From a virus, in IMG/VR virus record IMGVR_UViG_3300045988_120893, positions 1 to 64,000 of that record: a DNA stretch of 64,000 bases. One strand, 5' to 3'. The notes under the pieces were generated by a model. That model was given only the letters and a program-made list of their open reading frames with translations. It made no database searches and was not told the DNA's origin. The position numbers were made by a program, and so were the translations under genes. Numbering within the stretch: position 1 is the stretch's first letter; each line of letters opens with the position of its first letter. This document shows, one piece after another, positions 3,130 to 63,528 of this stretch.

Positions 3130-3151
3130 TAGTCTCACTCCTTTCCGTTTT

Positions 3152-4875: not shown

Positions 4876-5224
4876 CCCTTTTGATTTCCTCATGTTTTTT
4901 TACAACGAAATCCCTGAAAGCCTGGTTCGCATAACGCTTTTTATCTCCGTATTCCAGGCATAATGCGTTAAATGCTTCATAAAGGTCTTTTTCAATGTAT
5001 ATGGTATCCTTTACATAGTTTTCCTTAAATCCTCCGTCTTTTGGAAGAGGATCATATTCTTCTTTCCGCTTTTTCAGTTCTTCCGCAATCTCTTTCAATT
5101 TGCTGTCTTCTGATTCTCCGTCAACAATGCTTTTCACGACATCCGGACGTGATTTGTTCGTTTCCTTCTTCTGCTTCCCTATTTCAGCTAATCTCTTCTT
5201 AATCAGATCATTCGACACGCTCAA
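4856..5224 (-). CDS. Ribbon-helix-helix protein, candidate centromere-binding partner of ParA (ParG-like)
   Basis: 122 aa, overlaps the parA stop. The C-terminal TIYIEKDLYEAFNALCLEYGDKKRYANQAFRDFVVKK fits a beta-strand/helix/helix RHH pattern. The N-terminal half is charged. Confidence 0.5.
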   Translation of the reverse strand: MSVSNDLIKKRLAEIGKQKKETNKSRPDVVKSIVDGESEDSKLKEIAEELKKRKEEYDPLPKDGGFKENYVKDTIYIEKDLYEAFNALCLEYGDKKRYANQAFRDFVVKKHEEIKREEKGGK

Positions 5225-7029: not shown

Positions 7030-7527
7030 TTAGCTTTTTTTCTTGTTTTTGCATATCGTTACGGCAATCGTTTCTTTTGTTGTTCCCATCTCTTCCGCTA
7101 TCTGTTGATGTGTCCATCCGGCATCTCTTAATGCTAATATTTTCCCGATATCAAGTTTGTTTCGTTTCTTCTTTTTTTCTTCTGGCTCCTGCGGATCCTG
7201 TGTCCCTTCTGATTCATCTGATTCTGTCTCTTCCTTCACTTCTTCCTGTGCTTTCTCCAGAAAGTCGCCCATCATTGATGTTGGCACAACTAATTCCGGT
7301 TCTGTACTCACTTCTTCCGGTTCTGTGACAACTTCATGGTTGTTCGCATAATCCAGAATCTTATTCACGCAATCGGGATGGTAATCACGTTCCCACTGCT
7401 CACGTAAGAAGTCAGATACAATATCTCCGGTTTCCGTATCAACCCTGTTCGCTATGAGCCTTATATTTTCTCCTTTAATTTCTTTCTTGCAAAAATCACA
7501 CATAATAATTTTTTTAACCATTTTCAT
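7030..7527 (-). CDS. Hypothetical protein with N-terminal CxxC and C-terminal HTH
   Basis: CDFCKKE near the N-terminus, an acidic linker, and a C-terminal ILALRDAGWTHQQIAEEMGTTKETI (HTH-like). Confidence 0.6.
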   Translation of the reverse strand: MKMVKKIIMCDFCKKEIKGENIRLIANRVDTETGDIVSDFLREQWERDYHPDCVNKILDYANNHEVVTEPEEVSTEPELVVPTSMMGDFLEKAQEEVKEETESDESEGTQDPQEPEEKKKKRNKLDIGKILALRDAGWTHQQIAEEMGTTKETIAVTICKNKKKS

Positions 7528-10006: not shown

Positions 10007-10542
10007 AATACCAACCCTCCTGCTTTTTTTCTATTACCATTAGCACATTCAGATGCCTTTGAGTAATTCGTATTATTTTGCCTAGCCGCTTCCAATAATG
10101 TTTCATACTTTCCTATGAGTACACCATCTTTATATACGGCTGTTTTTTTTCTTCCAAAATTCCGTTTTGCTCCCATGCTCCTATAATCTGTTTTTTCGTG
10201 AACCTTTTTTGCACGTTCTTTTGTAACTTCATTTTCTTGCTGCTCTTTATAAGTTGCCCATTCAAGATTTTCAACCCTGTTATCATCTCGTATTCCGTTT
10301 TTATGATTTACAGTAGGCTTGTTGTACGGATTCGGAATAAATGCTTGTGCAACAAGCCTATGTGCTTTTAGTGTTTTTCTTACTCCATCAATACTTATCA
10401 CATAATATAGATATCCGTATTTATCTGTCGATGGACGCAAAAACTTATTTCTTCTATTGCTATATAAACGTCCGTCATTTGTAATTGAATACAACCCGTC
10501 AAAGAGCGAACCCATCTTAAACTGTTTTCGTGTTTCTTCCAT
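9994..10542 (-). CDS. HNH homing endonuclease (NUMOD4-like N-terminus + HNH)
   Basis: YSITNDGRLYS..., VNHKNGIRDDNRVENLEWATYKEQQ. AT-rich. Overlaps the methyltransferase start by 13 nt. Confidence 0.85.
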   Translation of the reverse strand: MEETRKQFKMGSLFDGLYSITNDGRLYSNRRNKFLRPSTDKYGYLYYVISIDGVRKTLKAHRLVAQAFIPNPYNKPTVNHKNGIRDDNRVENLEWATYKEQQENEVTKERAKKVHEKTDYRSMGAKRNFGRKKTAVYKDGVLIGKYETLLEAARQNNTNYSKASECANGNRKKAGGLVFCFE

Positions 10543-41588: not shown

Positions 41589-44327
41589 TTACTTTAATAT
41601 TCCAGCCGCTTTCATGAGTGCTAAACACTCCGGACTAGGATTAGATGATCCATTAAATTCTGCAAATGCTTCTGCGAATAGTTCTTTTGCATTTTTCGTA
41701 GCATATTTGCTGATTTTAGATGCAAAATCCTTTGTATTTGGGTGGTTCCCACCATATATTTTTCCTGTTGCTTTCTTAAAAACTTCCTTTTCCCATTTGC
41801 CGGATCTCTTATTCATGATAAAATCAATTTTTTTACTACCATCAAAATTTGATATTGTCTCATTTGCTGCAACTCCAACTGATTTTTTTGCTTGTATTCC
41901 ACCGATAACATGACCATATTCATGCCATACAATATCTTTTGCTGTCGTTCCCTTTGGATGGAAACCAATATCACAATCCGCTTTGTATTGCTGTTCTAAT
42001 GCTTCCAGTCCGTTTCCGTACAGCTTGGAAGATAACTTTAATGTCATTCGTCCTGTACCATCTGTTTCAATGCAAGCGTACATTCTACCGGATGATGACA
42101 TCTTGATTTCTTGTACAGCTCCTTTTGTTTCAGGATATTTAGACTGAATATCTGCCACTTGCTTATTGATGTGATTGATTGTATCAATATCAAGTTTGGT
42201 TCCGTAACTTGCTTTTTCAAATCCAAGTTCTTTTACTGCATATTCGGTTGCCGCTTTCTTAGTTTTTGCAGGTGTGAAATTGCTTTCTTGTGGTTTTTCT
42301 TCCTTTGGCTTCTCTGCCTTAGGTTTTTGAGGTTTCGGTTTTTGAGGTTTCGGCTGTTTATTGCCCGGCGCTGGCTTTGTACCGCCAAGACCGTATGCCC
42401 TGCCGATTGTTTCGTGGGATAGAGCGGATTCTCTTGCTATTGCCATTGCTCCGGCTCTTGTGTTTGGGTTAGCGGAAAAGGTTCTCGCTTGCTTGTCTGG
42501 GTGTCCGATCCATGAGCTATTCATGAAACCTCCGCCTGTTGCAAATCTACCAAGGCGGTCATGATAAGGGTTGAATTTTAATATTTCATCAAAACTCTTT
42601 GATACTTTACCGCTTTTGTAATATACCCAGTAATTATCTCCTAGATGCTGTTCATATCTTATCCCTTTTTTCTTGAAGTCTGACAAGATAGTGTTTTGTT
42701 TGTCTTTAGGTATCTGTGTATATAAAATATCTCTCTTACGATTAAAACTATCGTTTTTATCGTTGTTTAATCTGATATTGTGCTGATGTTCTACATAATC
42801 AACAAAATCATTTTTATTCTTTACATCTGAATAACTTTCAACTTTCTTTTTAGGTTTCTTTTCAGTTGTTTTCTTTTTATTGTTAGCGGATGCCATTTGT
42901 GAAGCACGTTCTTTCGCTCTTTCTTTCTCCCTAGCTATTGCGTTATCGTGGGCTTTACTCTTTCCTGGGGCATATGTGAAAGAAGCATAATTTCCACCGC
43001 TCCCAGATGTGAACCGTCCAAGCCTATCGTGATATGGATTGAACTTCAAAACTTCCGAAAAGGTCTTAGCAACTGTTTCAAATGGTTCATTTTCTGACTT
43101 CGTAACCGGCTCATTTACCGGCTCACGGACTGCCTTGCCCTCGATAGAGAACATATTGTATGTACCATTCTTGATTTTCTCCCATGTATCATCATCATCC
43201 ACATGAAATCCTATCCACCATCCAACCGGAACTGTTCCTTCTGGAATACCTATTGCTTTCATCTTCTCCGGAGTGAAAACACAGGACTCAACCATCTTGG
43301 CTTTCTTTCGGAGCGTTCCGATATGTTCCTCTCCCGCATCCCTGAATCTAAGTACATAATCATATGCACCTTTCTCCAGCTCGTCCGGTTCCACGATATC
43401 TCCTTGGTGGTCTACAATCGTTTCTCCGTCCGTCCGTTCTGATACCAACGCCCAGCCGAATACAAGACGCTGATCTTCGTCTGCTTTGGCAATATTGAAT
43501 GTTGGCTTTTTCATACTATCCTCCTCCGACTTTGTTATATCCTCATCACTCGAAGGTTTTTTATTTGTTACCGATTTGATTTGATGAGATTCAAATACTG
43601 CGTACACATCAGAAGGTTTCTCTTTGGAACTTCCATCTCTAACATTCTTGTACACAACACCATCATATCCGTTAGATTTTGCGTACTTTGCTATCTGATC
43701 TGTTGATGCATTAGAAGAATCCACCTTCTTACGCTGTAAAAAATCGTAAAATTTGTTTATTCCTTTTCCTTGTAGTTCCGGTGGAAGTTCTATTGCGTTC
43801 CATGCATTGCTATGACAGTCAATAACCAATGGGTTCTTAGCGTTCAGATAGCAAGTGTAAACCTGCTTTTCTCCGCCCATGCTATTATCAACGCTGTAAT
43901 ATTTATCAATCATTTCTTTATTTGTGGAAAAGAAATGTGCTGCACCACTTACATTGTTAGAATAAGATTGACTTGAATCAAATACAGTAAATCCACCATC
44001 CGGTGTTCCATGATAGACTTCCAGAAGATTCCCGTTATCATCTCTCATTTTAGAGTCTTTAAAAAAGTTCTTCTGTTCTTCTGACAGCTTATTTCCTGTA
44101 CTGCTTACTTCTGCCTCTCCAGCCTGTCCACTGCTTTCTGAAGAAGTCGCCGCCGCCGCTCTTTCCTTTTCCCTGGCGATAGCGTTATCGTGTGCCTTGC
44201 TCTTTCCGGGTGCATAGGTAAATGATGCATAGTTTCCGCCACTACCGGAGGTGAACCGTCCTTTACTGTCGTGGTAGGGGTTGAACTTTTCTATTGTTGA
44301 AAATGTCTGTGCTTTCAGTGGCATCAT
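41589..44327 (-). CDS. Polyvalent head protein: ART-like + XkdF protease-like + HExxH metallopeptidase-like domains
   Basis: KFNPYHD(S/R)xGRF motif at aa 14, 428 and 584. VYHGT...HFFST...VFESHQ (aa 104-249). XkdF-like FGWALVS..DHQGDIV..MFSIEG (aa 275-400). Pro/Lys linker (aa 650-680). WHEYGHVIGG (aa 801-810). Confidence 0.8.
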   Translation of the reverse strand: MMPLKAQTFSTIEKFNPYHDSKGRFTSGSGGNYASFTYAPGKSKAHDNAIAREKERAAAATSSESSGQAGEAEVSSTGNKLSEEQKNFFKDSKMRDDNGNLLEVYHGTPDGGFTVFDSSQSYSNNVSGAAHFFSTNKEMIDKYYSVDNSMGGEKQVYTCYLNAKNPLVIDCHSNAWNAIELPPELQGKGINKFYDFLQRKKVDSSNASTDQIAKYAKSNGYDGVVYKNVRDGSSKEKPSDVYAVFESHQIKSVTNKKPSSDEDITKSEEDSMKKPTFNIAKADEDQRLVFGWALVSERTDGETIVDHQGDIVEPDELEKGAYDYVLRFRDAGEEHIGTLRKKAKMVESCVFTPEKMKAIGIPEGTVPVGWWIGFHVDDDDTWEKIKNGTYNMFSIEGKAVREPVNEPVTKSENEPFETVAKTFSEVLKFNPYHDRLGRFTSGSGGNYASFTYAPGKSKAHDNAIAREKERAKERASQMASANNKKKTTEKKPKKKVESYSDVKNKNDFVDYVEHQHNIRLNNDKNDSFNRKRDILYTQIPKDKQNTILSDFKKKGIRYEQHLGDNYWVYYKSGKVSKSFDEILKFNPYHDRLGRFATGGGFMNSSWIGHPDKQARTFSANPNTRAGAMAIARESALSHETIGRAYGLGGTKPAPGNKQPKPQKPKPQKPKAEKPKEEKPQESNFTPAKTKKAATEYAVKELGFEKASYGTKLDIDTINHINKQVADIQSKYPETKGAVQEIKMSSSGRMYACIETDGTGRMTLKLSSKLYGNGLEALEQQYKADCDIGFHPKGTTAKDIVWHEYGHVIGGIQAKKSVGVAANETISNFDGSKKIDFIMNKRSGKWEKEVFKKATGKIYGGNHPNTKDFASKISKYATKNAKELFAEAFAEFNGSSNPSPECLALMKAAGILK

Positions 44328-50276: not shown

Positions 50277-51146
50277 TTACAACTCCTTTCTTAAACGTGA
50301 AGAAATATAATCTTCAATATCGCCTTGTTTTGTATGTCTACTGATTGTACTTCTTCCAACTCCTATCATTTTTGCCCAATCAGTAGCATTTTTAGTTACT
50401 CCATTTACAGTAATATGCATTGTGGTTCTTCTATTATTCGCTTGTTCCTTTGATGTGGTCCATCTGCAATTACTAGGTTCGTAATTACCATCATTATTTA
50501 TGCGGTCAATCGTTAGATCATCAGCATATCCATGAGCCATTGCCCAGTCATAGAATGCTTGAAAGTCATGTATCCATTCATCACAGACAGTTATTCCACG
50601 TCCACCATAATTAGCGTAGTGTTCATCTTTTGTGTTATAGCATCTTTTTTTCATGGTTGCCCAAATGTTATAAAGTCTAGTTTTATGCAATCCATGTTTA
50701 TAACTAGCACTATCTTTTCCATATGGATAATTTATTTTCTCACGATTTGATATTGTTCCTTGTAAACAACCACAACTTTTAGTTCTACCTTTCGTTATTA
50801 CCGAACTTCTTAAGCTAGTTGTTTTACCGCAATCACAAATACATTCCCAAATTGTTTCCCCTTTTTTACTTTTCCCACATGGCTTTATAACAGTCAGCAT
50901 ATTAAATTTTTTACCAGATATATCTTTTGTTCTATTTTTGCCATGTGATTTTTCTATTCTTGTACACCCACAACTTTTAGTAAGATTTCTCTTTAAACTA
51001 TTCGCAAATACTTCTGTATAATTGCCACAATCACACTTACAAAGCCATTTTGCGTGTCCATTTTTTGAAGATTCGCATTCAGACACAACAACAAGCCTAC
51101 CATACCTTTTACCTATCAAATTTTCTTTCTTCATAATATAACCCAT
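50277..51146 (-). CDS. Homing-endonuclease-like protein with triplicated zinc-ribbon modules and a degenerate HNH-like domain
   Basis: Three units of type GKRYGRLVVV...W.CKCDCG....V....L......SCGC, then YGGRGITVCDEW...IDRINNDGNYEPSNCRWTTSKEQANN. AT-rich. Confidence 0.65.
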   Translation of the reverse strand: MGYIMKKENLIGKRYGRLVVVSECESSKNGHAKWLCKCDCGNYTEVFANSLKRNLTKSCGCTRIEKSHGKNRTKDISGKKFNMLTVIKPCGKSKKGETIWECICDCGKTTSLRSSVITKGRTKSCGCLQGTISNREKINYPYGKDSASYKHGLHKTRLYNIWATMKKRCYNTKDEHYANYGGRGITVCDEWIHDFQAFYDWAMAHGYADDLTIDRINNDGNYEPSNCRWTTSKEQANNRRTTMHITVNGVTKNATDWAKMIGVGRSTISRHTKQGDIEDYISSRLRKEL

Positions 51147-51191: not shown

Positions 51192-53747
51192 TTAATGATT
51201 CCAATATGATTTTTTCTTATTTCCTACTTCCGTTGGTGGAGCGGAATGTGTATTCATTTTTTCAAGCTCGTCATATCCGTTTGCACTGGCATCTGCCATA
51301 TCTTTAAACTTCCTGTCTGGAAACCCGTCCATTTGAGCTAAATATGCTTGCGTCCACGGTGCATTAAGAACATCTACATTTCCTTTTTCTGAACCCTTTA
51401 TTCCAATCCATTGAGCGGACAAAGGCTCTGCTCTTGTCTCTTTGCTGCCGCTCTCCCTTACCATACTTACACTAAATCCAGATAGCATTTTTATATATTG
51501 TTCACTTTGGTCTTTACCACTTTGCCCAGGATCTTGCGACATTCTTATTTTAATTTTTCTCCCAAATGAAGCTTTGTCTGCTTTTGCAGTATTAAGGACA
51601 GTCTGGCGCACATCACTTGAGTTCATTCTGCGATTAATTACATCACCAATAACAATTCTTCCGTTCTTGCGTTTACCGATAAGAACACCAGCTGTATAGG
51701 CTGGACCATCCTCAGGATTATTGTTCTTTTTGTCCTCAGTACCGGCCAAATCCCATGCACGTACCCATCGAATAACATCATCTGGCAATTCATCAATGAT
51801 TGTAGCCTTATTTCTAGGGAAGTACATACCGGCAGCAGGCCTAATCTTCCAGTTCCCGCCTAAAAGCCGTTCCTGCTCTACAAGAGGAAGTGATTTCAAG
51901 TTGGCAAGGTAAGACGGGTCATTCCTCATGAGTATAGCGTTGTCGGAGAGCATGGACAGTATGAATGTGGCACTCTTCGGCGTGATAAGGTCAACATATT
52001 CTGTTCCGTTCCATCTGTAAAACTGTTTTGTTTCTGTGCATACATACAGAACACCGCTTTCACCATGTTCATGTATATACAGATTTCCTGTCTCACTGTC
52101 CTTTATGAAAAGTTCGTCCGGGTGCCTGTGCTTCTTATTTACTTCTCTTATCTCGCCATCAAACTGACGCTTCAAGAGCTCCATCCGGTTATCTCCCCAG
52201 ATTACTTCTCCATTTATGCGGATAAACCATCGTATCTTCCCAGACCGCTCCGGTATCGCATAACCCGTGTCCTGGTTAATCCACCATGAGATAAATTCTG
52301 CAACCCAGCTGTCAGGGTCAGGGTTGGTTGTGGCTCTGATATATCCGGGTACACCGGAATCAGAACGGTTTCGGGAGAACATATACCAGAAAACATCCTC
52401 ATTGAAATGTGTCAGCTCGTCAAAACAATTTTTATTGACTAACCCACTTTCAGTGATATAATGATTAGTGGTAGAAACTGTTAAATCAATAACCCATCTT
52501 TTACCTAAAGGAGTGATTTTACATGAATGATATTCAATATCAACCCCTTCCGCAATCTGTTCTTCTCCCGTATACGGGTGGACATACCGTAATTTATGGT
52601 GGATATGTTTATGAACTTTGCCCTGACCATCCAAAAGCGAATCCTTTCGGTTTTGTACCACAACACCGTCTAGTATTAGAACGTCACCTTGGACGTTATC
52701 TCCTTTCAAGTGAACAGGTACATCACATTGATATGGACCCCCTGAACAATGACCTCTCAAACCTTCAAATTCTTTCACGTTCTGAACATCTTGCGATACA
52801 TCGTAAATTTGAACGTGAGCAGCGTTATCCTCCTTTAACTCATGATATTGTTTCTGATGCTCTTGCAGATGGTGGTCTAAAAGCCGCTGCAAAGGCTCTC
52901 GGTTGTTCGACTGAAACGATTCGCAATAACTTCCCTTATCTTGTTGCGCCTTACAAAAGGAAATCTCCTGCAAACCTTGATCTTGATAGTTGGGTTGACA
53001 AAATAAAACCTCTTGCTGCTGATAAAAATATTGGTTATCGTGAGGCTGTTGCTGTTCTTGGCATATCTGCAAGGAGCATTCAACGTGTTTGTGAACGTCA
53101 TAACATTGAGTGGGTGAAGAAATCAAAGGTTGGTGAGATTCATACAAAGTACACATATCGGAATAGGAAACCCAGCCACAAGAAGTAAGGATTTTATGCG
53201 TTGTTGAATGAATCTGCTTTTCTCCATATTCATTTTCAATTTCAACACAATCTTCTAATCTTCTATTACCTATTGCTGTAACAGGCATAGGTCCTTGTAA
53301 AGTTTCTACCATATCCCCTATCTGTATATCTGATAGGGGTTTTTTAGTGCCATCTGCCATCCGTATTAAAGTAGATTCTTCACAACATATTAGTGGAATC
53401 TGTGAGCCTTGCCAGCCCAAACAATCCTCGTACCGCTCCAAGTGTCCGAAAGATACCTTTGCACCGCTCGGAAAAACAAATTGAGGGTTCGGGGTCTTTT
53501 TCGGTGTGGCTTGAAACTGTGGAAGAAAACCCATGGCAGAATCCCAAAGTCCACCGTTGGTAAATATCTGCGTGTTATTCCTACGGAAGATAACAGAATT
53601 GAATCGGGGGTTTCCGCTATGCCGTAACTGTTCCATGAGCAGAGCATAAGTTTTCCCTCCACCGGCGGCTCCACCGAATATTACAATATCTGCGATTGAC
53701 GATAAGAATTGTTCTTGTCTCGGCTGTGGCTTGATTACAGTTGACAT
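51192..53747 (-). CDS. terL: Terminase large subunit, interrupted by a 320-aa intein
   Basis: Walker A FGGAAGGGKTYAL. Walker B CFDELTHF follows the insert. The C-terminal nuclease half has typical length. Exteins are 120 + 411 aa. Confidence 0.95.
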   Translation of the reverse strand: MSTVIKPQPRQEQFLSSIADIVIFGGAAGGGKTYALLMEQLRHSGNPRFNSVIFRRNNTQIFTNGGLWDSAMGFLPQFQATPKKTPNPQFVFPSGAKVSFGHLERYEDCLGWQGSQIPLICCEESTLIRMADGTKKPLSDIQIGDMVETLQGPMPVTAIGNRRLEDCVEIENEYGEKQIHSTTHKILTSCGWVSYSDMCTLYESHQPLISSPTQCYDVHKHVECSLQICQEQQQPHDNQYFYQQQEVLFCQPNYQDQGLQEISFCKAQQDKGSYCESFQSNNREPLQRLLDHHLQEHQKQYHELKEDNAAHVQIYDVSQDVQNVKEFEGLRGHCSGGPYQCDVPVHLKGDNVQGDVLILDGVVVQNRKDSLLDGQGKVHKHIHHKLRYVHPYTGEEQIAEGVDIEYHSCKITPLGKRWVIDLTVSTTNHYITESGLVNKNCFDELTHFNEDVFWYMFSRNRSDSGVPGYIRATTNPDPDSWVAEFISWWINQDTGYAIPERSGKIRWFIRINGEVIWGDNRMELLKRQFDGEIREVNKKHRHPDELFIKDSETGNLYIHEHGESGVLYVCTETKQFYRWNGTEYVDLITPKSATFILSMLSDNAILMRNDPSYLANLKSLPLVEQERLLGGNWKIRPAAGMYFPRNKATIIDELPDDVIRWVRAWDLAGTEDKKNNNPEDGPAYTAGVLIGKRKNGRIVIGDVINRRMNSSDVRQTVLNTAKADKASFGRKIKIRMSQDPGQSGKDQSEQYIKMLSGFSVSMVRESGSKETRAEPLSAQWIGIKGSEKGNVDVLNAPWTQAYLAQMDGFPDRKFKDMADASANGYDELEKMNTHSAPPTEVGNKKKSYWNH
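52435..52462 (+). promoter_or_regulatory. Near-consensus promoter for the antisense HNH gene
   Basis: TTGACT (52435-52440), 16 nt, TATAAT (52457-52462). Embedded in terL coding sequence. Confidence 0.55.
52523..53188 (+). CDS. HNH homing endonuclease encoded antisense inside the terL intein
   Basis: AAAGGAG SD 9 nt before the ATG. HNH motif QVHHIDMDPLNNDLSNLQILSRSEHLAIH. Two HTH-like segments (LKAAAKALGCSTETIRNNF, YREAVAVLGISARSIQRVCERH). Confidence 0.85.
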   Translation: MNDIQYQPLPQSVLLPYTGGHTVIYGGYVYELCPDHPKANPFGFVPQHRLVLERHLGRYLLSSEQVHHIDMDPLNNDLSNLQILSRSEHLAIHRKFEREQRYPPLTHDIVSDALADGGLKAAAKALGCSTETIRNNFPYLVAPYKRKSPANLDLDSWVDKIKPLAADKNIGYREAVAVLGISARSIQRVCERHNIEWVKKSKVGEIHTKYTYRNRKPSHKK

Positions 53748-53784: not shown

Positions 53785-54318
53785 CTAAACTTCCAAATCG
53801 TCAAAATCATCTTCATCCTGCCTGTGGTTCTCCGGAAGATAAATCTGGACAGCGTTCATTGCCTGTCCGCCATCCCGGTTCTCAATAACCTCTCCGACAT
53901 CTCCACGGCTGATACGTTCCAGCTTGCTTGCAACATCAACCATCTTCGAAACGTCAGATGCCTTGATATCTTCCACCGGAATCTTATTCAATGCCTGTGC
54001 AGCCTTCACTATCATTGCGGATGCCACTGTTGCATGGTTCTTCCGCATTTTTTTTATGTCTTTGATCTGCTGCAATCTGTTCAGCCTGTCCACCTCTGCA
54101 TCCCAGGCTGTCACACGTTCTACCCAGTGGTTCTTTTTGCTCCAGATTCCAAGATTAGGCTTTGTCTTACCAAGAGCATCCGCTACCTTCTGGATGGATC
54201 TCTCTGCACCCATATCCCTGTATAAAGCAAATGCTTCCCATTGCTTAGGTGTTTCCCCCGGCTGCCGCTCCCATGGTTTCAAATCTTCTGGTGCTTCCTG
54301 TGTTTTTTTTCTTGCCAT
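53785..54318 (-). CDS. terS: Terminase small subunit
   Basis: Position directly upstream of terL. N-terminal ...PKQWEAFALYRDMGAERSIQKVADALGKT...IWSKKNHWVERVTAWD (HTH). Confidence 0.75.
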   Translation of the reverse strand: MARKKTQEAPEDLKPWERQPGETPKQWEAFALYRDMGAERSIQKVADALGKTKPNLGIWSKKNHWVERVTAWDAEVDRLNRLQQIKDIKKMRKNHATVASAMIVKAAQALNKIPVEDIKASDVSKMVDVASKLERISRGDVGEVIENRDGGQAMNAVQIYLPENHRQDEDDFDDLEV

Positions 54319-54322
54319 GCTA

Positions 54323-54952
54323 TCACTCCTTTCCTATCCTGATAAGTTCGTTTCTTTTTAATCGTGTGACGGTAAATGATGGTTCCCATGTGGCAAACCG
54401 TTCATCCTGTGGTATTCTGTCCGCTTCTCCACGGTCTATAAGGTCCACTGAATCACAAAGCATCTGTACCCCCATCGGGAATATCTCTTTCCATAAATCG
54501 CTATAACTCCATGACCGATCTATGAATACCGGTTTCTGCATGAGAATGTCTCCACCATCAACTTTGTTATTAAGCCAGTATACGGATGCCCCGGTGATAG
54601 CGTCACCCATTGCAACCGCCCACCTTACTGCATCCTGCCCCCGGTGTCGGGGAAGCAAGGAAGGATGGAAACCTATCCCACCATACCTTGCCTTTTCAAT
54701 TACTTTTTCGGATATAAACCAGTGAGAATGTGCGGCAACGATTAAGTCTGTGTTATCCGGTATATCATTTGACGTTAGCTTATCCATATCGGATATAACC
54801 GGGATACCTAATTTCATTGCTGGACCTATGACTTTATCAAAATATTTTTCTTGTGGAGGTGGGGCAACACCTACGATGGTATGCCCACGATCATATAATT
54901 CTTTCAAAACGACTTTCCCAAAACTACGCTGGCCGCATAGGAATATATTCAA
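54323..54952 (-). CDS. Formyltransferase catalytic-domain protein (Fmt/PurN-like, 209 aa)
   Basis: NIFLCGQRSFG...GHTIVGV..., GIGFHPSLLPRHRG, VDGGDIL. No Fmt C-terminal domain. Gly replaces the catalytic Asn two residues before His. Confidence 0.8.
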   Translation of the reverse strand: MNIFLCGQRSFGKVVLKELYDRGHTIVGVAPPPQEKYFDKVIGPAMKLGIPVISDMDKLTSNDIPDNTDLIVAAHSHWFISEKVIEKARYGGIGFHPSLLPRHRGQDAVRWAVAMGDAITGASVYWLNNKVDGGDILMQKPVFIDRSWSYSDLWKEIFPMGVQMLCDSVDLIDRGEADRIPQDERFATWEPSFTVTRLKRNELIRIGKE

Positions 54953-56106
54953 CTAATATCACCATACTTTCCGATATATTTGAATCCTTGTACAGCTCGG
55001 AAGTGACCTCCATAACCAACACCATTCATCTTTGAGCCTTTTTTACGGCGGCTTTTCTGAATGCTCATTGCACTTTTCTTTTTGTTGTCACCATAAAGCA
55101 TTGCACTTGTTTGTATCCAATTCTTGCTACGTCTTAAAGCCATGCATAGCTGCGGATGTGAAGTATGGAAGAATGTCGCATATTTCCGGTTGCAACGTCC
55201 ATTTCCGTCCATGTGATAGCTGCATACCCATTCAAGGAAACGGAATCCTACACCTGCACCCTGCCACTCAGGCATGGTTACAAGCCTTGTGGCACGATAC
55301 GCATTAGCTGTGAACATAGGTGCAACGGCAACATGGCAAGCAAGCTCACCATCAACAGTACCTACAAAATATTCTGCTGCTGGCGGCATAGGTAAATCTA
55401 AATAGTAATGCGGTTTAAAAAACTTCCAGTAACTTGAGTCCGTCTTGAAAATTTCAAGCCGTATTTTCGGTCTTTGCCTGGGATTCCCCCTTTCAAAACG
55501 CTTTGAAGCGGTGTCAAATACCCAATCCGGCTGTACCCAATCTAATATGTCATAGTGAGGTGTCAGCAATACCACTTTTCCATTTGGATTCGTTCTTCTC
55601 CATGCCTTTTGAAATGCCTGCGAACCGATTTTCGCAATCTGGCGGTCTACAACGGAAGTGAACTCGTCAACAACCGCTTTTTCCGGCTTTTCGCAAATCA
55701 GCCTTGCAAGTCCCGCCCGGAACTGCTCACCATTAGAAAGTACTCTGAACGTCCTTAGCCATGCTGGAACATCACCAAGACCTACATTAGCCAATGCCCC
55801 CGTTACCTCGTTAAAATCACCATCAGGAGCGATTTCGTCAATGATTGGTTTGTTTGGATGCCATCCCTTTGTGTAGTCGTGTATAAGGTTCTCACCATCA
55901 AATATTGTTTTCCCTATGGAAGTCTTTCCGCTCCCAGATGGCCCGACTACAACACCAATCTGCCAATCACCGGATAAGTCCATGGTGGCTTCAAGGTCAA
56001 AGTTACATCCGTTTTCGGCATTGAAAAGGCTTTTTACCCTTGCCGCCCTGTAACTGTTAAAATCATCAACACGGTTATGTACTTCAATCTTTGTCAGTTT
56101 ATTCAT
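54949..56106 (-). CDS. ABC-type ATPase fused to a GNAT-like acyltransferase
   Basis: Walker A GPSGSGKT, signature LSNGEQFR, Walker B AVVDEFTS, GNAT loop TMPEWQGAGVGFRFLEW. Confidence 0.8.
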   Translation of the reverse strand: MNKLTKIEVHNRVDDFNSYRAARVKSLFNAENGCNFDLEATMDLSGDWQIGVVVGPSGSGKTSIGKTIFDGENLIHDYTKGWHPNKPIIDEIAPDGDFNEVTGALANVGLGDVPAWLRTFRVLSNGEQFRAGLARLICEKPEKAVVDEFTSVVDRQIAKIGSQAFQKAWRRTNPNGKVVLLTPHYDILDWVQPDWVFDTASKRFERGNPRQRPKIRLEIFKTDSSYWKFFKPHYYLDLPMPPAAEYFVGTVDGELACHVAVAPMFTANAYRATRLVTMPEWQGAGVGFRFLEWVCSYHMDGNGRCNRKYATFFHTSHPQLCMALRRSKNWIQTSAMLYGDNKKKSAMSIQKSRRKKGSKMNGVGYGGHFRAVQGFKYIGKYGDIS

Positions 56107-56852
56107 GTAGTCACAACCTTACATTCGTAACCATCTGAATAGAGACGTTCATATACTTCTTTCTGTTCCGCTTCGTCCTTGCATATTACAATAACTCCAT
56201 ACTGCTCTTTATAGTTGAAATTTGTTGTGGTTGTTATCTGAGGATCGTCTGTAGATGGAAATGTAGACGGTTCTGTGGTTATTTCTGTGGGTTGTTCTGT
56301 TTGTGTTTCTGTGGTATCTTCTGTGCCTGTGCTTTCCGGCTCTGTGTGTTTCTTCCCATGGTCAGTATCGCTTGAAAAACTTTCAATGACCCTGAGTGCT
56401 TCATCATCATTGATTAAATCGTCTATCTCATGGTACTCATATCCTGTCAGCATAACGTCAATGTCTGTGTTGTTGATGTCATTCAGGATATCAATGAGCA
56501 AATCTTCATCAATACTGCTCAGTTCTGAAATGCGGTTATCAGCTACCAGATCCGCCCATTCTTCCGCTTCGTTTGCATAATCCTGATAATCTACAGGCAC
56601 ATGAGTTTCTTTCAGAAGTATTGCGGCTTGCAACCGCCCATGTCCGGACACGACAAAACCGCTCCTCTTACTTACGGTAATCGGTTTTCTCCATCCCTGA
56701 GCCTTAATGACCTGTGCCAGTATCTCAATCTGACGTTCCGGATGCATATTCGGGTTACGTGGGTTTGGTATTACTTTCATAATTTCTACGATTTCGTCAT
56801 GTGAGCAGTAGACCGGAATATCTCCAATCATTGCTTTGCATTGAATACTCAA
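56103..56852 (-). CDS. ParB N-terminal (ParB/Srx) domain protein, copy 2
   Basis: ...NPRNPNMHPERQIEILAQVIKAQGWRKPITVSKRSGFVVSGHGRLQAA..., a Thr/Glu/Pro linker, and a small C-terminal domain YGVIVICKDEAEQKEVYERL. Confidence 0.85.
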   Translation of the reverse strand: MSIQCKAMIGDIPVYCSHDEIVEIMKVIPNPRNPNMHPERQIEILAQVIKAQGWRKPITVSKRSGFVVSGHGRLQAAILLKETHVPVDYQDYANEAEEWADLVADNRISELSSIDEDLLIDILNDINNTDIDVMLTGYEYHEIDDLINDDEALRVIESFSSDTDHGKKHTEPESTGTEDTTETQTEQPTEITTEPSTFPSTDDPQITTTTNFNYKEQYGVIVICKDEAEQKEVYERLYSDGYECKVVTT

Positions 56853-56864
56853 TATTCATCCGTC

Positions 56865-57083
56865 CTATTCTTCACTAGTACCATCACTAGGTTGTTGTTC
56901 TACGATTCCATATATCCTGATTTCATCTTTTCCGGATTCCGTTTTTTCTGCAGGGACAAGCTCTATCTTTCCTACATTCTGAACGCTTTCTGACAGCTGT
57001 ATTTTTTCTATAAGCTGGTATCCTGTATAACCAGTAGCCTTATTCGTGTAATTCCTTGCCGCTGCAAGTGTAAGAAGGTCCAT
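56865..57083 (-). CDS. Small hypothetical protein (72 aa)
   Basis: ORF between the two ParB-like genes. Confidence 0.55.
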   Translation of the reverse strand: MDLLTLAAARNYTNKATGYTGYQLIEKIQLSESVQNVGKIELVPAEKTESGKDEIRIYGIVEQQPSDGTSEE

Positions 57084-57097
57084 GGTTCCTCACATCC

Positions 57098-57304
57098 TTA
57101 CTGTTCATACCAGATTTCGTCATCCTCGCTGTAACAGAAGATTTTCCTTGTGTCCATCTCATAAAACTCAGATGCGTTTCCTATTTTTCTTCCATCAAAT
57201 TCACGTATAGGCTTTTCATCCGTGCTCTTTCCGTAAAGTTCAAGGCATTTCCTGTTCACGTATCTTCCGTATCTTCTCAATGTCACCATGGCATCAAGGG
57301 TCAC
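57098..57304 (-). CDS. Small hypothetical protein (68 aa)
   Basis: ORF between the two ParB-like genes. Confidence 0.55.
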   Translation of the reverse strand: MTLDAMVTLRRYGRYVNRKCLELYGKSTDEKPIREFDGRKIGNASEFYEMDTRKIFCYSEDDEIWYEQ

Positions 57305-57308
57305 ATCC

Positions 57309-58085
57309 TTATTTTTTTATGGGTCTCGGCTTTCTTAGTTTGAATATATCGCTTTCCATGTCATTTTCCCTCGCCCATGCAGTAATCAGTTCCATGTATC
57401 CGTATTCTTTTTGTTCCCTTACACACGTACATCCCATATTCCCAGTCTCATAGACATAATGGCTTATGATGCTGTCACAAATAGGGTCTTCTTCACCAAC
57501 AATAAATCTATGCTCTCCAAGGTTCCAGATATCTCCGGCTTTAGAAAACATGGATGGTACTTTTATTTCTTCCGGAGTTTCCTCTTCTTCCTCTCCTTCA
57601 AGATCAGAAAGTATATTGTCTATATCTTCTGAATCATATCCGGTAAGTGCAAGCATATCTTCATTCTCGAATGAATCTATCATCTCTGATAGAATCTGAT
57701 TATCAATTTCAGAAAGTTCCGCAAGCCGGTTGTCAGCAATAAGGTCAGCGTATTCTTCGTCCTGGCTGGAATATTCCTGATAGTCCACCGGAACATTCGA
57801 CCATCCGGCAAGTTTGGCCGCCTGCAATCTTCCATGTCCTTTGACGATACATCCGCTCCTGTTCGAAACAGTGATAGGCTGTCTCCATCCTGTTTTCTCT
57901 ATGATGCTTTTGAGAAGTTCGATCTGTTCTTGTGGGTGTTGGTTTGGGTTGAGTGGGTTCGGTTTGAGGTTCTTTGTAGGCACGATGTCGTCGTGCGAAC
58001 AGAAGATAGGGATACCATCATTTGATACTGCTTTTGGCTCTGCTGAGGTTCTGTAATCAATATCTTCTATTTTTTTACCATCCAT
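57309..58085 (-). CDS. ParB N-terminal (ParB/Srx) domain protein, copy 1, with a vestigial methyltransferase junction motif
   Basis: ...NPLNPNQHPQEQIELLKSIIEKTGWRQPITVSNRSGCIVKGHGRLQAA.... GGAGG SD. C-terminal GDIWNLGEHRFIVGEED. Confidence 0.85.
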   Translation of the reverse strand: MDGKKIEDIDYRTSAEPKAVSNDGIPIFCSHDDIVPTKNLKPNPLNPNQHPQEQIELLKSIIEKTGWRQPITVSNRSGCIVKGHGRLQAAKLAGWSNVPVDYQEYSSQDEEYADLIADNRLAELSEIDNQILSEMIDSFENEDMLALTGYDSEDIDNILSDLEGEEEEETPEEIKVPSMFSKAGDIWNLGEHRFIVGEEDPICDSIISHYVYETGNMGCTCVREQKEYGYMELITAWARENDMESDIFKLRKPRPIKK

Positions 58086-58934: not shown

Positions 58935-59252
58935 TTACATCTCATTTGTTCGTCTCTCGTAACTTGCATAGTCATCTAAACTACGGAAATTCATTCTCAT
59001 ATGACTATTTTCCCAATGTGGATGTTTCCAAAATTTCTTCTCGCATGATGCTGAGCAAAATCTTGTACGCATATCTCCACTACCATCCTCTGTTACTACT
59101 GTCCTTCCGCATTGTGAACAATTAAAAGTTATTGACGGATATAATAATGTGACTTTATGTGTTTTCCTGAATATATCTCCGCACTTTCTGCAACAGTACT
59201 TTTGTGTTACTGAAAGTTGAGTAAATTCTTTACCACAATTTAAACATTGCAT
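58935..59252 (-). CDS. Zinc-ribbon protein (105 aa)
   Basis: CLNCG...CCRKCG...CSQCG...CSASC. Confidence 0.65.
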   Translation of the reverse strand: MQCLNCGKEFTQLSVTQKYCCRKCGDIFRKTHKVTLLYPSITFNCSQCGRTVVTEDGSGDMRTRFCSASCEKKFWKHPHWENSHMRMNFRSLDDYASYERRTNEM

Positions 59253-60617: not shown

Positions 60618-61202
60618 TCACTCCTTCACATAATTATTCATGTATGTATCTATCTTGCTTAGGTATGCAAGTCCATACTTGTTGTTTATTTTTATTTCCC
60701 ATTCTGGCATCAGTTCATCCGCTGATACGGATGCTTTCCCAGGTGTTGTCCATGACATTCCATGCCAGATAACGGATGCTTTTTTTCTTTTGTCCCTGAT
60801 CCACATATTTCTTGCGGCAGACCAGAACGCCCATGGCACAAGGAAGAACCGCTCCAGATTAAACGATACAAGCACTGCTCCGAATCCTGCACCAGACTCT
60901 CCGACAAAATCATTAAGGAACTTTGCCTGGTGGTCTTTCACCTCATTAAAGCTGATTCTACTGCTTTTCGTGTGTTTCGCTTCGATTGCTACCGGTATAC
61001 CCCGATATCTACCCATGAAGTCAACAGGTGCTTTCCTGTCAACCTTGCAGCTTATTACCTTGCCCTGTCTGTTTCTCAAAGGGATAAACTCTGTTGGTAC
61101 TTTCTCAACTACCGCTATCCCTGCCGACCTGTACCTGGCATTGGAATACTCCACAAATTCTTCAAAAGCCATGCCACGTCCAGCGTAACTAATGTTTTTC
61201 AT
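60618..61202 (-). CDS. recU: Holliday junction resolvase RecU
   Basis: [31 protein letters not shown] ~ B. subtilis [52 protein letters not shown]..F....DHQAKFL ~ [21 protein letters not shown]..F....DHQIEHM. Confidence 0.85.
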   Translation of the reverse strand: [194 protein letters not shown]

Positions 61203-61492
61203 TTTTTTACCTCCAATGCTTTTTCTATATCCCAACCTCTTTTTATTCTCCCATACAGTGTATGGTAGTTAATTCCAACTATATCTGACAACTGTTTAAG
61301 AGTTTTACTTTCTCCGTTATATTCATAAACCAGATTGTAACTCACATTATTTGCTTGCTCCTTCATCGTTGCCCATCGGCAGTTTCCACAATCACATTTA
61401 CACAGAAACCTCATTCTGCCATCATATGGCCTATCGCATTCTATGATAACAACGAGTTTTCCAAATCGTTCTCCTATCAAATCTTTTTCCAT
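61199..61492 (-). CDS. Truncated paralog of the 50277..51146 endonuclease-like gene
   Basis: Start at MEKDLIGERFGKLVVI. One FLCKCDCGN zinc-ribbon start is joined directly to CRWATMKEQANN and a C-terminal HTH-like tail. Confidence 0.55.
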   Translation of the reverse strand: MEKDLIGERFGKLVVIIECDRPYDGRMRFLCKCDCGNCRWATMKEQANNVSYNLVYEYNGESKTLKQLSDIVGINYHTLYGRIKRGWDIEKALEVKK

Positions 61493-61496
61493 TCTT

Positions 61497-62177
61497 TCAC
61501 ATCTCTCTTTCTGATTTTTTAGAAAATTTTTCATATCTTTCAAGCACTCCCTGGCTGTAAGAAGTGGAATAAACTTCATCTCTCCATAGCCTTTTCGCAC
61601 AAGGCTCTCCCATGTTGTATGCCATGAGTGCAAGGTTTTTGTATTCATATTTTTCAAGATATTCTCTGATTATTTCAATTCCGCAATAGGTGTTGTCGTA
61701 TGGGTTCGTGAAGTCCTTTTCTCCATACTTTTCTTCAAAATAACCATGGACGCTTTCATTGATCTGCATGAGTCCATAATCTTCTGTGACACTTACGGCC
61801 ATTGGGTCATAATTGCTTTCCTGCTCTATGATTGCGATAACCAGGCAATAGAAATCATCATCATATCCGCATTCTTTATAAATGAATTTTTGAAGTTCGT
61901 CGCTTAATGGAATATCAAGATTCTGTGGTAATATTTCCGGTGGTGGCCCAGTGTGGATTTCTTCTTGTGGTTTTATTTCTTTTTCCGTGGATTGTTCTGT
62001 GGGTGTTTCCTTTGGTTCTTCTGCTTGTGTTTTTTCCTGATGTTCTTCTACCTGTTCCTCTTGATAGGTATTTTTCTCTTTCGCACAATACCTGTCTTCC
62101 ATGACAAGGAACAAAGTGAACATGGGTATAAGTATAACCATTCCAACACATATCATGTAATTTTTAAATTTTCTCAT
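61497..62177 (-). CDS. Membrane-anchored lytic transglycosylase (SLT domain)
   Basis: N-terminal TM segment. IAIIEQESNYDP...GLMQINE...AYNMG. Confidence 0.85.
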   Translation of the reverse strand: MRKFKNYMICVGMVILIPMFTLFLVMEDRYCAKEKNTYQEEQVEEHQEKTQAEEPKETPTEQSTEKEIKPQEEIHTGPPPEILPQNLDIPLSDELQKFIYKECGYDDDFYCLVIAIIEQESNYDPMAVSVTEDYGLMQINESVHGYFEEKYGEKDFTNPYDNTYCGIEIIREYLEKYEYKNLALMAYNMGEPCAKRLWRDEVYSTSYSQGVLERYEKFSKKSEREM

Positions 62178-62232: not shown

Positions 62233-63528
62233 TTATATTAGTTTTTTTAGCCTTTGGATTGTTGATTTCGGTATCCCTGTCACTTCTACCAGCTTCCGTA
62301 CAGACAGTTCAGGATTTTCATTCATTGCTTTTCTTATGATCTCAACCTTTTCAATAACTGCTGCCTTGTCGTCCGCTATCTTCTGTTCCATGGTACGCAT
62401 ACCGGCTTCTCTTCGTTGTTCTTCTTTCCTTTTCAGCTCTCTTCTTCTTTTCTCCGCCGGATTTATGATAGTCTCTAAATGAACCATTTCATCCTGCGTG
62501 ATATCCAGCCAGCTTATAAGTTTTGCATTGCTTATGTTATATCCCGCTCCCGGATATCCTCTTTTTATTGCCTGTTCATTTGCTTCCTTGTTGCTCCTTG
62601 CTTCATATGCTTTTTCTGCACTTTTCGTTGCCGTTTTAAGTTCTTTTTCTTGTAATGGGGAAGTAAAAGTTTCATTCAGTTCTTTTGTCTGCCTGTAGGC
62701 TTCTTCCTTATCATCACAAAAGCAGCACATCCAGTACCGGTACAGGAAGCATATTGTTTCCCTGTATCCTGTAACATTGTACTCCCTCAATTCCACCAGT
62801 TTTGTTATGTCAAGCAATCTGGCATGGTTCAGTGAGTACACGTTGAATAGCTGTATAATCTTTCTTTTCCTGCCGGGTTTCTTTTCCTTCTTAGGTGTCA
62901 GATCTGGTAGATAATCATACTGTATATCCCTGATATTATACCTATAGTCATGCCTGTAATCGACATGTACTATGGCATTGTTTTTTGAATTTATGCTTCC
63001 GGCTATCCTGAAAACCCTTGACGCATCAACTGCTCTCGGATCTCCTCCAACGTCCTTTAGCTGTTCAAGAAGATATCTCTGTATGCTGTTCCATAACGGA
63101 AGTGCCTTGTATGGAACCGGTTCTATCAGCCATATCAGAACCAATCCCCTTCCGCTGTGTATTATGAGGTTCGGTTCTGGTATGCTCTGTCGGAAACATT
63201 CCAGTTCCAGCTTTCCAATAACCCACTTCGGGTCATAGTTCATGTTATAACAGTCGATATCCACATACAGATTCCGTAACTGCCTTATATTTTCGATTCT
63301 TCGTTGTGGACGGTAGAAGGTATTTTGGCTGCAATATACATCCTCTTCGCCAATGCAATTAGACAGTTCTTCAATCAGTTGCTCTTTCTTGTAATGCCGC
63401 TGAACAAATTTTCCATCTACTTTTTTGGCTATGGTTATGTAGCCGTCAGCACTGTCATGCTGGAACAGTATTTGATTCCTAGCTTCTTCTATCTGAGAAT
63501 CATATTTCAATGCACTTGTGCTATTCAA
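62233..63528 (-). CDS. Replication initiator candidate with primase-polymerase (AEP)-like motifs and C-terminal HTH
   Basis: TTG start with a GGAAAGGAAG SD. LYVDIDCY (DxD), IIHSGRGLVLIW, C-terminal VRKLVEVTGIPKSTIQRLKKL. Confidence 0.6.
   Translation of the reverse strand: MNSTSALKYDSQIEEARNQILFQHDSADGYITIAKKVDGKFVQRHYKKEQLIEELSNCIGEEDVYCSQNTFYRPQRRIENIRQLRNLYVDIDCYNMNYDPKWVIGKLELECFRQSIPEPNLIIHSGRGLVLIWLIEPVPYKALPLWNSIQRYLLEQLKDVGGDPRAVDASRVFRIAGSINSKNNAIVHVDYRHDYRYNIRDIQYDYLPDLTPKKEKKPGRKRKIIQLFNVYSLNHARLLDITKLVELREYNVTGYRETICFLYRYWMCCFCDDKEEAYRQTKELNETFTSPLQEKELKTATKSAEKAYEARSNKEANEQAIKRGYPGAGYNISNAKLISWLDITQDEMVHLETIINPAEKRRRELKRKEEQRREAGMRTMEQKIADDKAAVIEKVEIIRKAMNENPELSVRKLVEVTGIPKSTIQRLKKLI

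Follow-up and report, generated by a model that had tools for sequence, protein, structure and literature searches.

In this study, we analyzed a 64,000-nucleotide (nt) stretch of viral DNA (positions 1 to 64,000 of IMG/VR record IMGVR_UViG_3300045988_120893), referred to below as the window. Directly upstream of the terminase genes terS and terL, it carries a run of minus-strand genes for two ParB-like proteins (ParB1 and ParB2), a fusion of an ABC-type ATPase to a GNAT-fold domain (ABC-GNAT) and a formyltransferase-like (Fmt-like) protein. A preliminary description, made from the letters of the window alone, had proposed that these genes form an uncharacterized module for nucleic-acid modification. 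Our results support the existence of a conserved, functionally coupled phage module tied to the packaging genes, and they add to it a third constant part, a beta-alpha-beta domain of ~38 amino acids (aa), which that description had missed. The reading as nucleic-acid modification is plausible, and we tentatively favor a form of it in which phage DNA is acylated.

A conserved gene module beside the packaging genes

The open reading frames (ORFs) of this operon are all present on the minus strand with the motifs and 4-nt overlaps first described for them (Table 1). Read directly from the sequence, the overlap between ParB2 and ABC-GNAT is ATGA (56103-56106) and that between ABC-GNAT and the Fmt-like gene is TTGA (54949-54952). 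As proposed, terS follows directly after the last gene; its ATG lies 4 nt past the Fmt-like stop, rather than the 5 nt first given, and its Shine-Dalgarno sequence falls within the 3′ end of the Fmt-like gene. The run of genes continues uninterrupted on the minus strand between an early/replication block (replication protein, 62233-63528; SLT, 61497-62177; RecU, 60618-61235; and DUF1653) and the packaging genes. We found no minus-strand terminator-like site from 60.6 kb to terS, in a promoter and terminator scan that did not rise above shuffled expectation. The module is transcribed together with the packaging (late) genes. A search for known defense systems with PADLOC returned only the ParB part of the MTase_II model and a 37-residue ABC-signature match, and no curated NCBIfam family was found for any part of the module.

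Table 1. Genes and domains of the module and the adjoining packaging genes, in window positions
Feature	Coordinates	Strand	Description
ParB1	57309-58085	-	ParB_N protein, accessory; outside the conserved core
Two small ORFs (68 and 72 aa)	57098-57304, 56865-57083	-	Between ParB1 and ParB2; window-specific insert
ParB2	56103-56852	-	ParB/Srx-domain protein
ParB2 N-terminal nucleotide-binding (ParB/Srx) domain, ~residues 20-135	56448-56795	-	Optional part of the module
ParB2 linker, ~residues 136-210	56223-56447	-	Acidic, Thr/Glu-rich; isoelectric point 4.05; 19 D+E versus 3 K+R
ParB2 C-terminal ~38-aa beta-alpha-beta domain	56106-56222	-	phrog_28816, E 3e-14
ABC-GNAT fusion, 385 aa	54949-56106	-	ABC-type ATPase plus GNAT
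ABC-type ATPase domain, residues 1-204	55495-56106	-	Pfam ABC_tran; AlphaFold and Foldseek
GNAT-fold domain, residues 205-385	54949-55494	-	AlphaFold and Foldseek; Pfam matches of homologues
Fmt-like protein, 209 aa	54323-54952	-	PF00551; FDH-N-domain/Fmt clade; stand-alone catalytic domain
terS	53785-54318	-	phrog_6299, E 3e-33
terL, T4-like Terminase_6N/6C	51192-53747	-	Pfam and PHROG; interrupted by a ~310-aa insert

The preliminary description had called for a survey of gene neighborhoods, which we carried out on 160 loci (80 from IMG/VR and 80 from GTDB species genomes), clustering neighbor genes with the use of non-overlapping ORFs. Among the 140 loci with enough sequence, ABC-GNAT is directly followed by an Fmt-like gene in 128 and, in a reciprocal search, ABC-GNAT lies directly upstream in all 78 testable Fmt-like loci. 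Fusions join the same parts, each pair of them somewhere: the nucleotide-binding domain (NBD) at the N terminus of ParB, linker, beta-alpha-beta domain and ABC-GNAT form one chain in P0277, P0289, P0293 and P0367, and ABC-GNAT and Fmt are fused as one 534-aa ORF in L116. Because of this near-obligate co-occurrence, the translational coupling and the Rosetta-stone fusions, we conclude that the genes are functionally coupled, and their recurrence in hundreds of loci means that the set is not a chance arrangement. The proposal of an uncharacterized module at the packaging genes thus stands for these parts. It does not extend to ParB1 and the two small ORFs, which lie outside the module core. Outside the window, ParB1 was found in L005 alone, the closest relative; there, ~30 nt separate it from ParB2 and the two small ORFs are missing. 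The C-terminal 60 aa of ParB1 were likewise found in L005 alone. The small ORFs had no Pfam, PHROG, NCBIfam or PADLOC match and no tblastn match in the 160 loci.

The constant partner of ABC-GNAT is not the ParB N-domain but the beta-alpha-beta domain that forms the C terminus of ParB2, with the motif F.YK.QYGVIV.C.DE.EQ...Y..L...G...KVV.[VT]-stop. This domain adjoins ABC-GNAT, immediately upstream, in 154 of 159 loci, whereas a ParB N-domain lies upstream in 58 of 149 (~39%). In all 80 IMG/VR loci and in four reference phages, it ends an ORF that abuts or overlaps the ABC-GNAT start. It is encoded either alone (40-55 aa) or as the C terminus of a ParB protein, and it corresponds to gp28 of Burkholderia phiE255, to a 42-aa "acr candidate" in Porphyromonas phages and to the tail of gene 1 in Gordonia phages. 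Its Lys residues are not invariant. Its profile gave only generic beta-alpha-beta matches in the PDB (de novo designs, Pth2; E ~2e-3) and Pfam returned nothing; neither search assigned it to a family.

Both ParB proteins belong to the ParB/Srx superfamily. ParB1 exceeds the Pfam ParB_N cutoff (28.2 bits versus 26.3); ParB2, which has no Pfam match, is placed by matches to PHROG ParB families (E 2e-32) and NCBIfam parB_part (E 3e-5) and by alignment with the Spo0J/ParB structures 4umk and 1vz0. Against profiles of ParB-methyltransferase fusions, the two proteins align with the ParB portion alone; ParB1, which is of the type that forms the N terminus of such fusions, aligns at positions 14-207 of 633 in phrog_498 and 12-183 of 436 in PADLOC MTase_II. 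We considered and rejected a partition ParB: no helix-turn-helix (HTH) was detected, ParB2 has GHGR at the place of the ParB GERR arginine patch, the ParA-like gene of the window lies 50 kb away (5208-5981) and enzyme fusions exist.

The module is widespread. Identity between ABC-GNAT proteins is 53-62% between phages of Firmicutes, Actinobacteria, Proteobacteria and Bacteroidetes, and the family comprises >6,600 clusters at 90% identity, with 450 clusters at 50% identity and E<1e-30. Host genomes span at least 10 phyla and include Clostridia, Bacteroidales, Akkermansia, Planctomycetota, Chloroflexi, Treponema, Acidobacteria and Rickettsiales; the family is common in phages of Bacteroides, Oscillospiraceae, Akkermansia, Porphyromonas gingivalis, Burkholderia, Pseudomonas, Gordonia and Streptomyces. 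The distant clades of ABC-GNAT (30-38% identity) in Streptococcus phage 315.4 and Leptospira phage LE4 have a ParB-linker-beta-alpha-beta gene upstream and no Fmt-like gene. In an Fmt-less Firmicutes sub-clade (L023, L025, L028, L047, L106 and L107; ~7100-7350), a conserved 60-73-aa protein overlaps the ABC-GNAT stop and precedes terS. No family was detectable for this protein or for a 178-aa protein that replaces Fmt in a distant clade.

The first large downstream gene is terL (from four unrelated Pfam families) or portal in 35 of 64 loci; in the remainder, host genes or a recombinase follow, which places the module at the prophage end. In the Mu-like phages phiE255 and Komp_PAO1_1, and also in Porphyromonas phages, the module terminates the genome or prophage, behind the tail-fibre genes. 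Mu itself carries com-mom at its genome end after the tail-fibre genes, com being a small gene that overlaps mom upstream. Late-activator-like genes (ArpU/sigma-like or Mor-like) often lie upstream of the module.

Two neighboring genes deserve mention. In L169 (JBAIHQ010001161.1), a gene with an Acb2/Tad1 hairpin domain (8540-8899) lies ~1.7 kb downstream of the fused protein P0289. This domain defines an anti-CBASS/anti-Thoeris sponge family, which hints that the module can sit within an anti-defense gene cluster. In Streptococcus phage 315.4 (L085), an ASCH-domain gene (5014-5391) lies two genes downstream of the ParB/ABC-GNAT pair. The E. coli ASCH protein YqfB hydrolyses N4-acylcytosines and, by this analogy, the phage gene may be a lead towards N4-acyl-cytosine chemistry.

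Domains of the ABC-GNAT and formyltransferase-like proteins

Profile searches and structure prediction, the checks suggested at the outset, upheld the domain identities first assigned from the letters alone. The ABC domain has an intact Walker A (G55-K61, GPSGSGKT), signature (L123SNGE), Walker B with its catalytic Glu (D147-E148, VVDEF) and H-loop (H184), as expected of an ABC-type nucleotide-binding domain, and G55, K61, S124, G126, D147, E148 and H184 are invariant across 65 sequences. Its AlphaFold model (mean pLDDT 85.8) matched the NBDs of PotA, MalK, FtsE and SufC in Foldseek. An ABC transporter was rejected as its identity because no cognate membrane component is conserved nearby; a search for a permease found no membrane-protein cluster conserved among the neighbors of the 160 loci. 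In the distant homologues P0334 and P0335, Hint/LAGLIDADG inteins interrupt the ABC domain.

The GNAT domain was less readily recognized. Foldseek with the full-length model returned ABC NBDs only, and the second domain was seen once the C-terminal part (residues 205-385; AlphaFold pLDDT 81.7) was modelled alone. This part of the window protein has no Pfam match, and homologues of ABC-GNAT carry PF13508/PF00583 matches. Against the PDB, the model gave 136 matches at E<=1e-3, all of them GNATs (TM up to 0.64) and including NAGS, RimI, PaiA, SpeG and GCN5; the BFVD matches were viral GNATs. The acyl-CoA pyrophosphate loop of GNAT motif A (Q282-G-A-G285-V-G287) is invariant in the 65 sequences. 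These results uphold the GNAT-like domain that had been suggested from a single motif, and model and alignment indicate that both the fold and the predicted acyl-CoA loop are intact. The domain is basic (calculated isoelectric point 10.0; the ABC half has 5.8 and ParB2 has 4.3), with a disordered Lys/Arg-rich insert ahead of its last strand.

These structural relationships raise the possibility that ABC-GNAT acetylates or formylates a protein, either of the host (a defense or nucleoid protein) or of the phage (one involved in packaging or part of the virion), and that ParB merely localizes the enzyme on DNA. The protein N-acetyltransferases RimI, NatF, HP0935 and GCN5 are among its top structural neighbors, and ABC NBDs of the transporter or mechanotransducing type (FtsE, SufC) have partner proteins on which they act. 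A role as substrate or adaptor is conceivable for the small acidic beta-alpha-beta protein itself, and the Acb2/Tad1-like gene in L169 places anti-defense functions nearby. However, such a role is difficult to reconcile with 53-62% identity across phyla despite very different host proteomes, and the module is independent of terminase family. The neighborhoods offer no conserved candidate substrate gene except the small domain, whose Lys residues vary. We consider a protein target unlikely.

The Fmt-like protein is a member of the Formyl_trans_N superfamily, scoring 74.5 bits against PF00551 (cutoff 26.1) and retaining the HxSLLPxxRG motif and the catalytic His and Asp. The two peculiarities pointed out for the window protein, namely, the lack of the Fmt C-terminal OB/tRNA-binding domain and the Gly in place of Asn, proved to be family-wide: the proteins end after the catalytic domain, and the position of the Asn of amine-directed formyltransferases is Gly (Gly94 in the window) or Ile throughout, with Ile also in FDH (10-formyl-tetrahydrofolate dehydrogenase). 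H96, S98 and D132 are invariant. When aligned with 4qpd, the window protein has GFHPS where FDH has IYHPS. The family profile scored 146 bits (E 8e-42) against the FDH N-domain in the PDB, 84-107 against Fmt, 73 against ArnA, 54 against PurN and 32 against HypX. The absence of the Asn is no defect; it is shared with the FDH N-domain, the closest relative of the family. With regard to an FDH-type thiol transferase, the protein has the His/Ser/Asp triad and a residue other than Asn two positions before the His, but neither the protein nor the operon contains a 4′-phosphopantetheine carrier or ALDH domain. Fmt itself was rejected (TIGR00460, 88.5 bits versus a cutoff of 201.5; no C-terminal tRNA-binding domain; Gly at the Asn position), as was PurN (TIGR00639, 47.9 bits versus 150.1; no equivalent of Asn106).

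The FDH N-domain moves a formyl group from 10-formyl-tetrahydrofolate (THF) to a 4′-phosphopantetheine thiol via His/Ser/Asp, and the homologous N-domain of HypX has been proposed to make formyl-CoA (PMC6802093, PMC8748788). The FDH-like, thiol-directed kinship of the Fmt-like family therefore suggests a formyl-CoA relay into the GNAT domain, rather than a crippled Fmt.

After FDH, the nearest relatives of the Fmt-like family are Met-tRNA formyltransferases, which brings RNA into consideration as a target. The module might carry out ATP-dependent acetylation of tRNA or rRNA (TmcA-like formation of N4-acetylcytidine, ac4C) or of aminoacyl-tRNA (TacT/AtaT-like), together with aminoacyl-tRNA formylation, in a late reprogramming of translation. 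The ATPase-plus-GNAT logic is that of TmcA, the very basic GNAT domain would fit such a role, cross-phylum conservation suits a universal target such as tRNA or the ribosome, and the ASCH-domain gene of phage 315.4 can be cited in its favor. Nonetheless, the Fmt C-terminal tRNA-binding domain is absent family-wide, and TmcA-type domains are lacking as well. A ParB-type protein, one of a class whose known partners act on DNA (PMC13229309), is the obligate partner, and the module also occupies the place where phages have DNA methyltransferases or mom. We consider it improbable that RNA or the translation apparatus is the target.

Our literature search (COG2401, ATP-binding-cassette-like protein, ParB+GNAT+ABC and phage DNA formylation) found no paper that characterizes the module, in agreement with the initial statement that no characterized system was known to have this gene set. 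The only prior mention found dates from 2010, when gp28-30 of phiE255 were noted under the names "ABC transporter" and formyl transferase, their role being left undefined (PMC2920897). ABC-GNAT is a member of phrog_11143, whose function is not annotated. Members of the family are currently annotated as "ABC transporter", "PurN" or "phosphoribosylglycinamide formyltransferase", "tRNA methyltransferase" and "acr candidate", all of which are mis-annotations. Taken at face value, the first two names would point to a metabolic "moron" with a small-molecule target, which might rewire folate and one-carbon metabolism or inactivate a polyamine, an antibiotic-like compound or an immune signal of the host, and SpeG, PaiA and NAGS do occur among the structural neighbors of the GNAT domain. 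We regard this as very unlikely, given that there is no adjacent membrane component and that scores fall far under the purN and fmt equivalog cutoffs. Moreover, the genes are co-transcribed with the packaging genes, unlike an independently expressed moron, and a ParB fusion makes no sense for a metabolite enzyme.

Possible acylation of phage DNA

The interpretation that we favor, although with slightly less than even confidence, is that the module is a late-gene enzyme complex of tailed phages for the ATP-dependent, ParB-assisted N-acylation of phage DNA; its target (DNA, RNA or protein) and its chemistry are points that we can only infer. In this model, a small acyl group, formyl or acetyl, would be put on the phage's own double-stranded DNA (dsDNA) just before packaging as a protection against host restriction. 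The beta-alpha-beta domain would dimerize, tether two ABC-GNAT protomers and dock the ParB NBD when present, giving access to dsDNA; this role is suggested because of an analogy with the dimerizing C-terminal domain (CTD) of a phage thymine-dioxygenase ParB activator. ATP-driven closure of the ABC dimer would position a base, or flip it, into the basic GNAT domain; with a CoA thioester as donor, this domain would acylate an exocyclic amine of the base. Cytosine N4 or guanine N2 would be a likelier acceptor than adenine N6, because acyl adducts of the latter are unstable. Where present, the Fmt-like protein would load formyl from 10-formyl-THF onto the CoA thiol, as in the FDH N-domain and as proposed for HypX, to yield an N-formyl mark, and Fmt-less relatives would use acetyl-CoA. 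If formyl-CoA is made on the spot, this would explain why a thiol-directed folate enzyme is welded to a CoA-dependent transferase. The more specific claim of N-formylation, or another short N-acylation, of DNA bases by a formyl-CoA relay, which would make this the first such enzymatic system, is in our view an unlikely one.

Precedents exist for elements of the acylation model. In one phage system, a thymine dioxygenase is activated, specifically on dsDNA, by its cognate ParB, which has an NBD-linker-CTD layout, lacks an HTH and needs both NBD and CTD (PMC13229309); this gives substance to the earlier suggestion that ParB-like proteins partner with DNA-modifying enzymes. In addition, the GNAT protein Mom has been proven to modify dsDNA (PMC13219725). 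Also in favor of the model are the FDH-type formyl transfer described above, the matches of ParB1 and ParB2 to ParB-methyltransferase fusions, the co-occurrence, fusions and cross-phylum spread of the parts, their place beside the packaging genes or where Mu has mom, and the intact motifs of the ABC, GNAT and Fmt-like domains.

Mom also provides the basis for a different reaction on the same target. It is a GNAT that uses Gly-tRNAGly to modify adenine N6 in dsDNA via an N6-glycyl intermediate (PMC13219725), and by extension the GNAT of the module might add glycine or another amino acid to DNA from an aminoacyl-tRNA donor, after which the Fmt-like protein would formylate the alpha-amine. This last step would be chemically the same as that of PurN on glycinamide ribonucleotide or of Fmt on Met-tRNA; the Fmt/PurN superfamily does formylate primary amines of aminoacyl or glycinamide groups, and in Mu-like phages the module occupies the position of mom. 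However, the canonical QxxGxG acyl-CoA loop is invariant, the similarity to Mom is not specific, the amine-directed Asn is missing from an Fmt-like family that lies nearer to thiol-directed FDH, and no tRNA genes were found in the window. We judge an aminoacyl-tRNA donor to be decidedly unlikely.

Several observations weigh against acylation of DNA from a CoA donor. No DNA modification has been reported for any phage carrying the module, adenine acylated at N6 is reportedly unstable (PMC13219725), and formyl-CoA, itself a labile donor, would come from a step that for HypX too is a proposal. The ABC domain resembles transporter- or mechanotransducer-type NBDs and not those of Rad50, SMC, RecF, UvrA or MutS, and the GNAT domain has its best structural matches among acetyltransferases of proteins and small molecules. 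No sequence-specific DNA-binding domain (HTH) is recognizable in any component. Finally, the Fmt-like gene is absent from 12 of the 140 loci and from all distant clades, and formyl transfer is thus not essential to the core reaction.

If the acylation model is correct, the phage DNA modifications that defeat restriction would gain both a new chemistry (N-formyl or N-acyl bases) and a new enzyme architecture, and the licensing of DNA-modifying enzymes by ParB-type proteins would have a second, independent example. A formyl-CoA relay, if it operates, would imply a previously unseen, chemically labile epigenetic mark in thousands of gut, mouth, soil and water phages across at least 10 bacterial phyla. 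Standard DNA work-up would miss a labile acyl mark, which could nevertheless bias nanopore and single-molecule real-time (SMRT) signals as well as restriction-based assays, and the enzymes might be turned into tools to acylate DNA site-selectively. The question is directly testable, since the module is present in cultured phages (Gordonia phages Axumite and NHagos, phiE255 and Komp_PAO1_1).

Other features of the window and relation to known systems

Several other features of the window merit description. The insert in terL (~310 aa, residues ~125-445; 52400-53372, minus strand) is absent from the uninterrupted L005 homologue. It starts C-C-EESTLIRMADG and ends ...VNKN|C, and from these features it looks like an intein, with a Pfam Hom_end_hint match at only E 0.08. 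A 221-aa HNH_3 plus HTH endonuclease ORF (52523-53188, plus strand) lies wholly inside the insert, antisense to it, and the sense frame is open for 851 codons; if the insert is an intein, an antisense homing-endonuclease gene within it would be unusual. Further HNH homing-endonuclease genes or fragments are found at 50277-51146 (between terL and portal), 61199-61657 and 58935-59252, all on the minus strand, and an HNH_3/NUMOD4 endonuclease gene (9994-10542, minus) is immediately upstream of, and overlaps, a gene for a 699-aa C5 cytosine DNA methyltransferase (7907-10006, minus). Judging from these matches, the genome appears to be heavily colonized by homing elements. The Pfam match of the methyltransferase is split into two stretches by an insert with Zn-ribbon-like matches, and its gene leads to the prediction that the phage also methylates its DNA. 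A 912-aa polyvalent protein (41589-44327, minus) combines an ART-PolyVal ADP-ribosyltransferase with an XkdF-type serine protease domain. Near the start of the window, a phage-encoded protein with a Spo0A C-terminal (DNA-binding) domain (2806-3216, minus) has beside it a large serine recombinase (3334-4731, plus) and the ParA/MinD-type ATPase mentioned above (minus strand), a cluster that suggests interference with sporulation and either integration or plasmid-like maintenance.

With respect to known systems, the module falls outside the Fmt, PurN, TmcA, Mom, DpdN, partition ParB and ABC-transporter families, each of which has a defining feature that fails here. Two parallels drawn in the preliminary description, to TmcA and to Mom, did not hold up as family relationships. 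As in TmcA/NAT10, an ATPase is fused to a GNAT, and TmcA acts with acetyl-CoA on an exocyclic amine of nucleic acid. However, TmcA/NAT10 has a helicase-type P-loop ATPase and its own N-terminal and tRNA-binding domains; this family was rejected because Pfam detects ABC_tran only and the N-domain folds as a transporter-type ABC NBD. The resemblance to Mom includes a small overlapping gene upstream (the beta-alpha-beta gene here, com in Mu), and both proteins are late-expressed phage GNATs with the same genome position in Mu-like phages. Unlike Mom, the window protein has an acyl-CoA loop, an ABC ATPase fusion and a folate-dependent partner, and what the two have in common is the fold alone. The Mom family, marked by likeness beyond the generic GNAT fold and by an HTH-like insertion, was rejected, as Mom lies outside the top 50 PDB matches and a Mom homologue ranks 43rd in BFVD (E 7e-4).

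DpdN, the predicted dPreQ1 formyltransferase of deazaguanine-modifying phages, is likewise a phage protein of PF00551, and its predicted substrate is an amine on modified DNA, but it is accompanied by DpdA and the preQ1 pathway (PMC10516641). A DpdN/deazaguanine system was rejected because DpdA and preQ0/preQ1 genes are absent from the conserved neighbor clusters of the 160 loci and from the window ORFs scanned, the window scan being non-exhaustive. The DpdN paper itself set aside a phage formyltransferase group unlinked to deazaguanine genes (PMC10516641). Closer in formyl chemistry are the N-terminal hydrolase domain of FDH (ALDH1L1) and the HypX N-domain, which have in common with the Fmt-like protein a GQxxFG motif at the N terminus and the His/Ser/Asp triad, and which likewise lack the Asn. 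They transfer to a pantetheine thiol, on a carrier domain in FDH and, as proposed for HypX, on CoA (PMC6802093, PMC8748788). The phage protein differs in having no carrier, ALDH or enoyl-CoA-hydratase domain and no C-terminal subdomain, and the link to HypX is weak (32 bits).

Phage ParB-DNA methyltransferase fusions (phrog_498; PADLOC MTase_II) resemble the module in the type of their ParB N-domain and in lying just upstream of terS, with the difference that the partner here is a separately encoded acyl/formyl transferase, whereas theirs is an S-adenosylmethionine-dependent methyltransferase. The ParB-dependent phage thymine dioxygenases (5mYOX176 with ParB176) offer the most detailed parallel: ParB2 has the same layout of NBD, unstructured linker and small CTD without an HTH, and in both cases the ParB is encoded beside the enzyme and near the terminase, with ParB176 needed for activity on dsDNA (PMC13229309). 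The partner in our module is an ABC-ATPase/GNAT protein with a formyl-transfer domain, not an Fe/2-oxoglutarate dioxygenase, and, unlike in ParB176, the CTD alone is constant and the NBD is dispensable in ~60% of loci, the two CTDs being likened by layout. By analogy, then, the module appears to be nearest to the ParB-dependent 5mYOX enzymes and the ParB-methyltransferase fusions in architecture and position, and to FDH and HypX in formyl chemistry.

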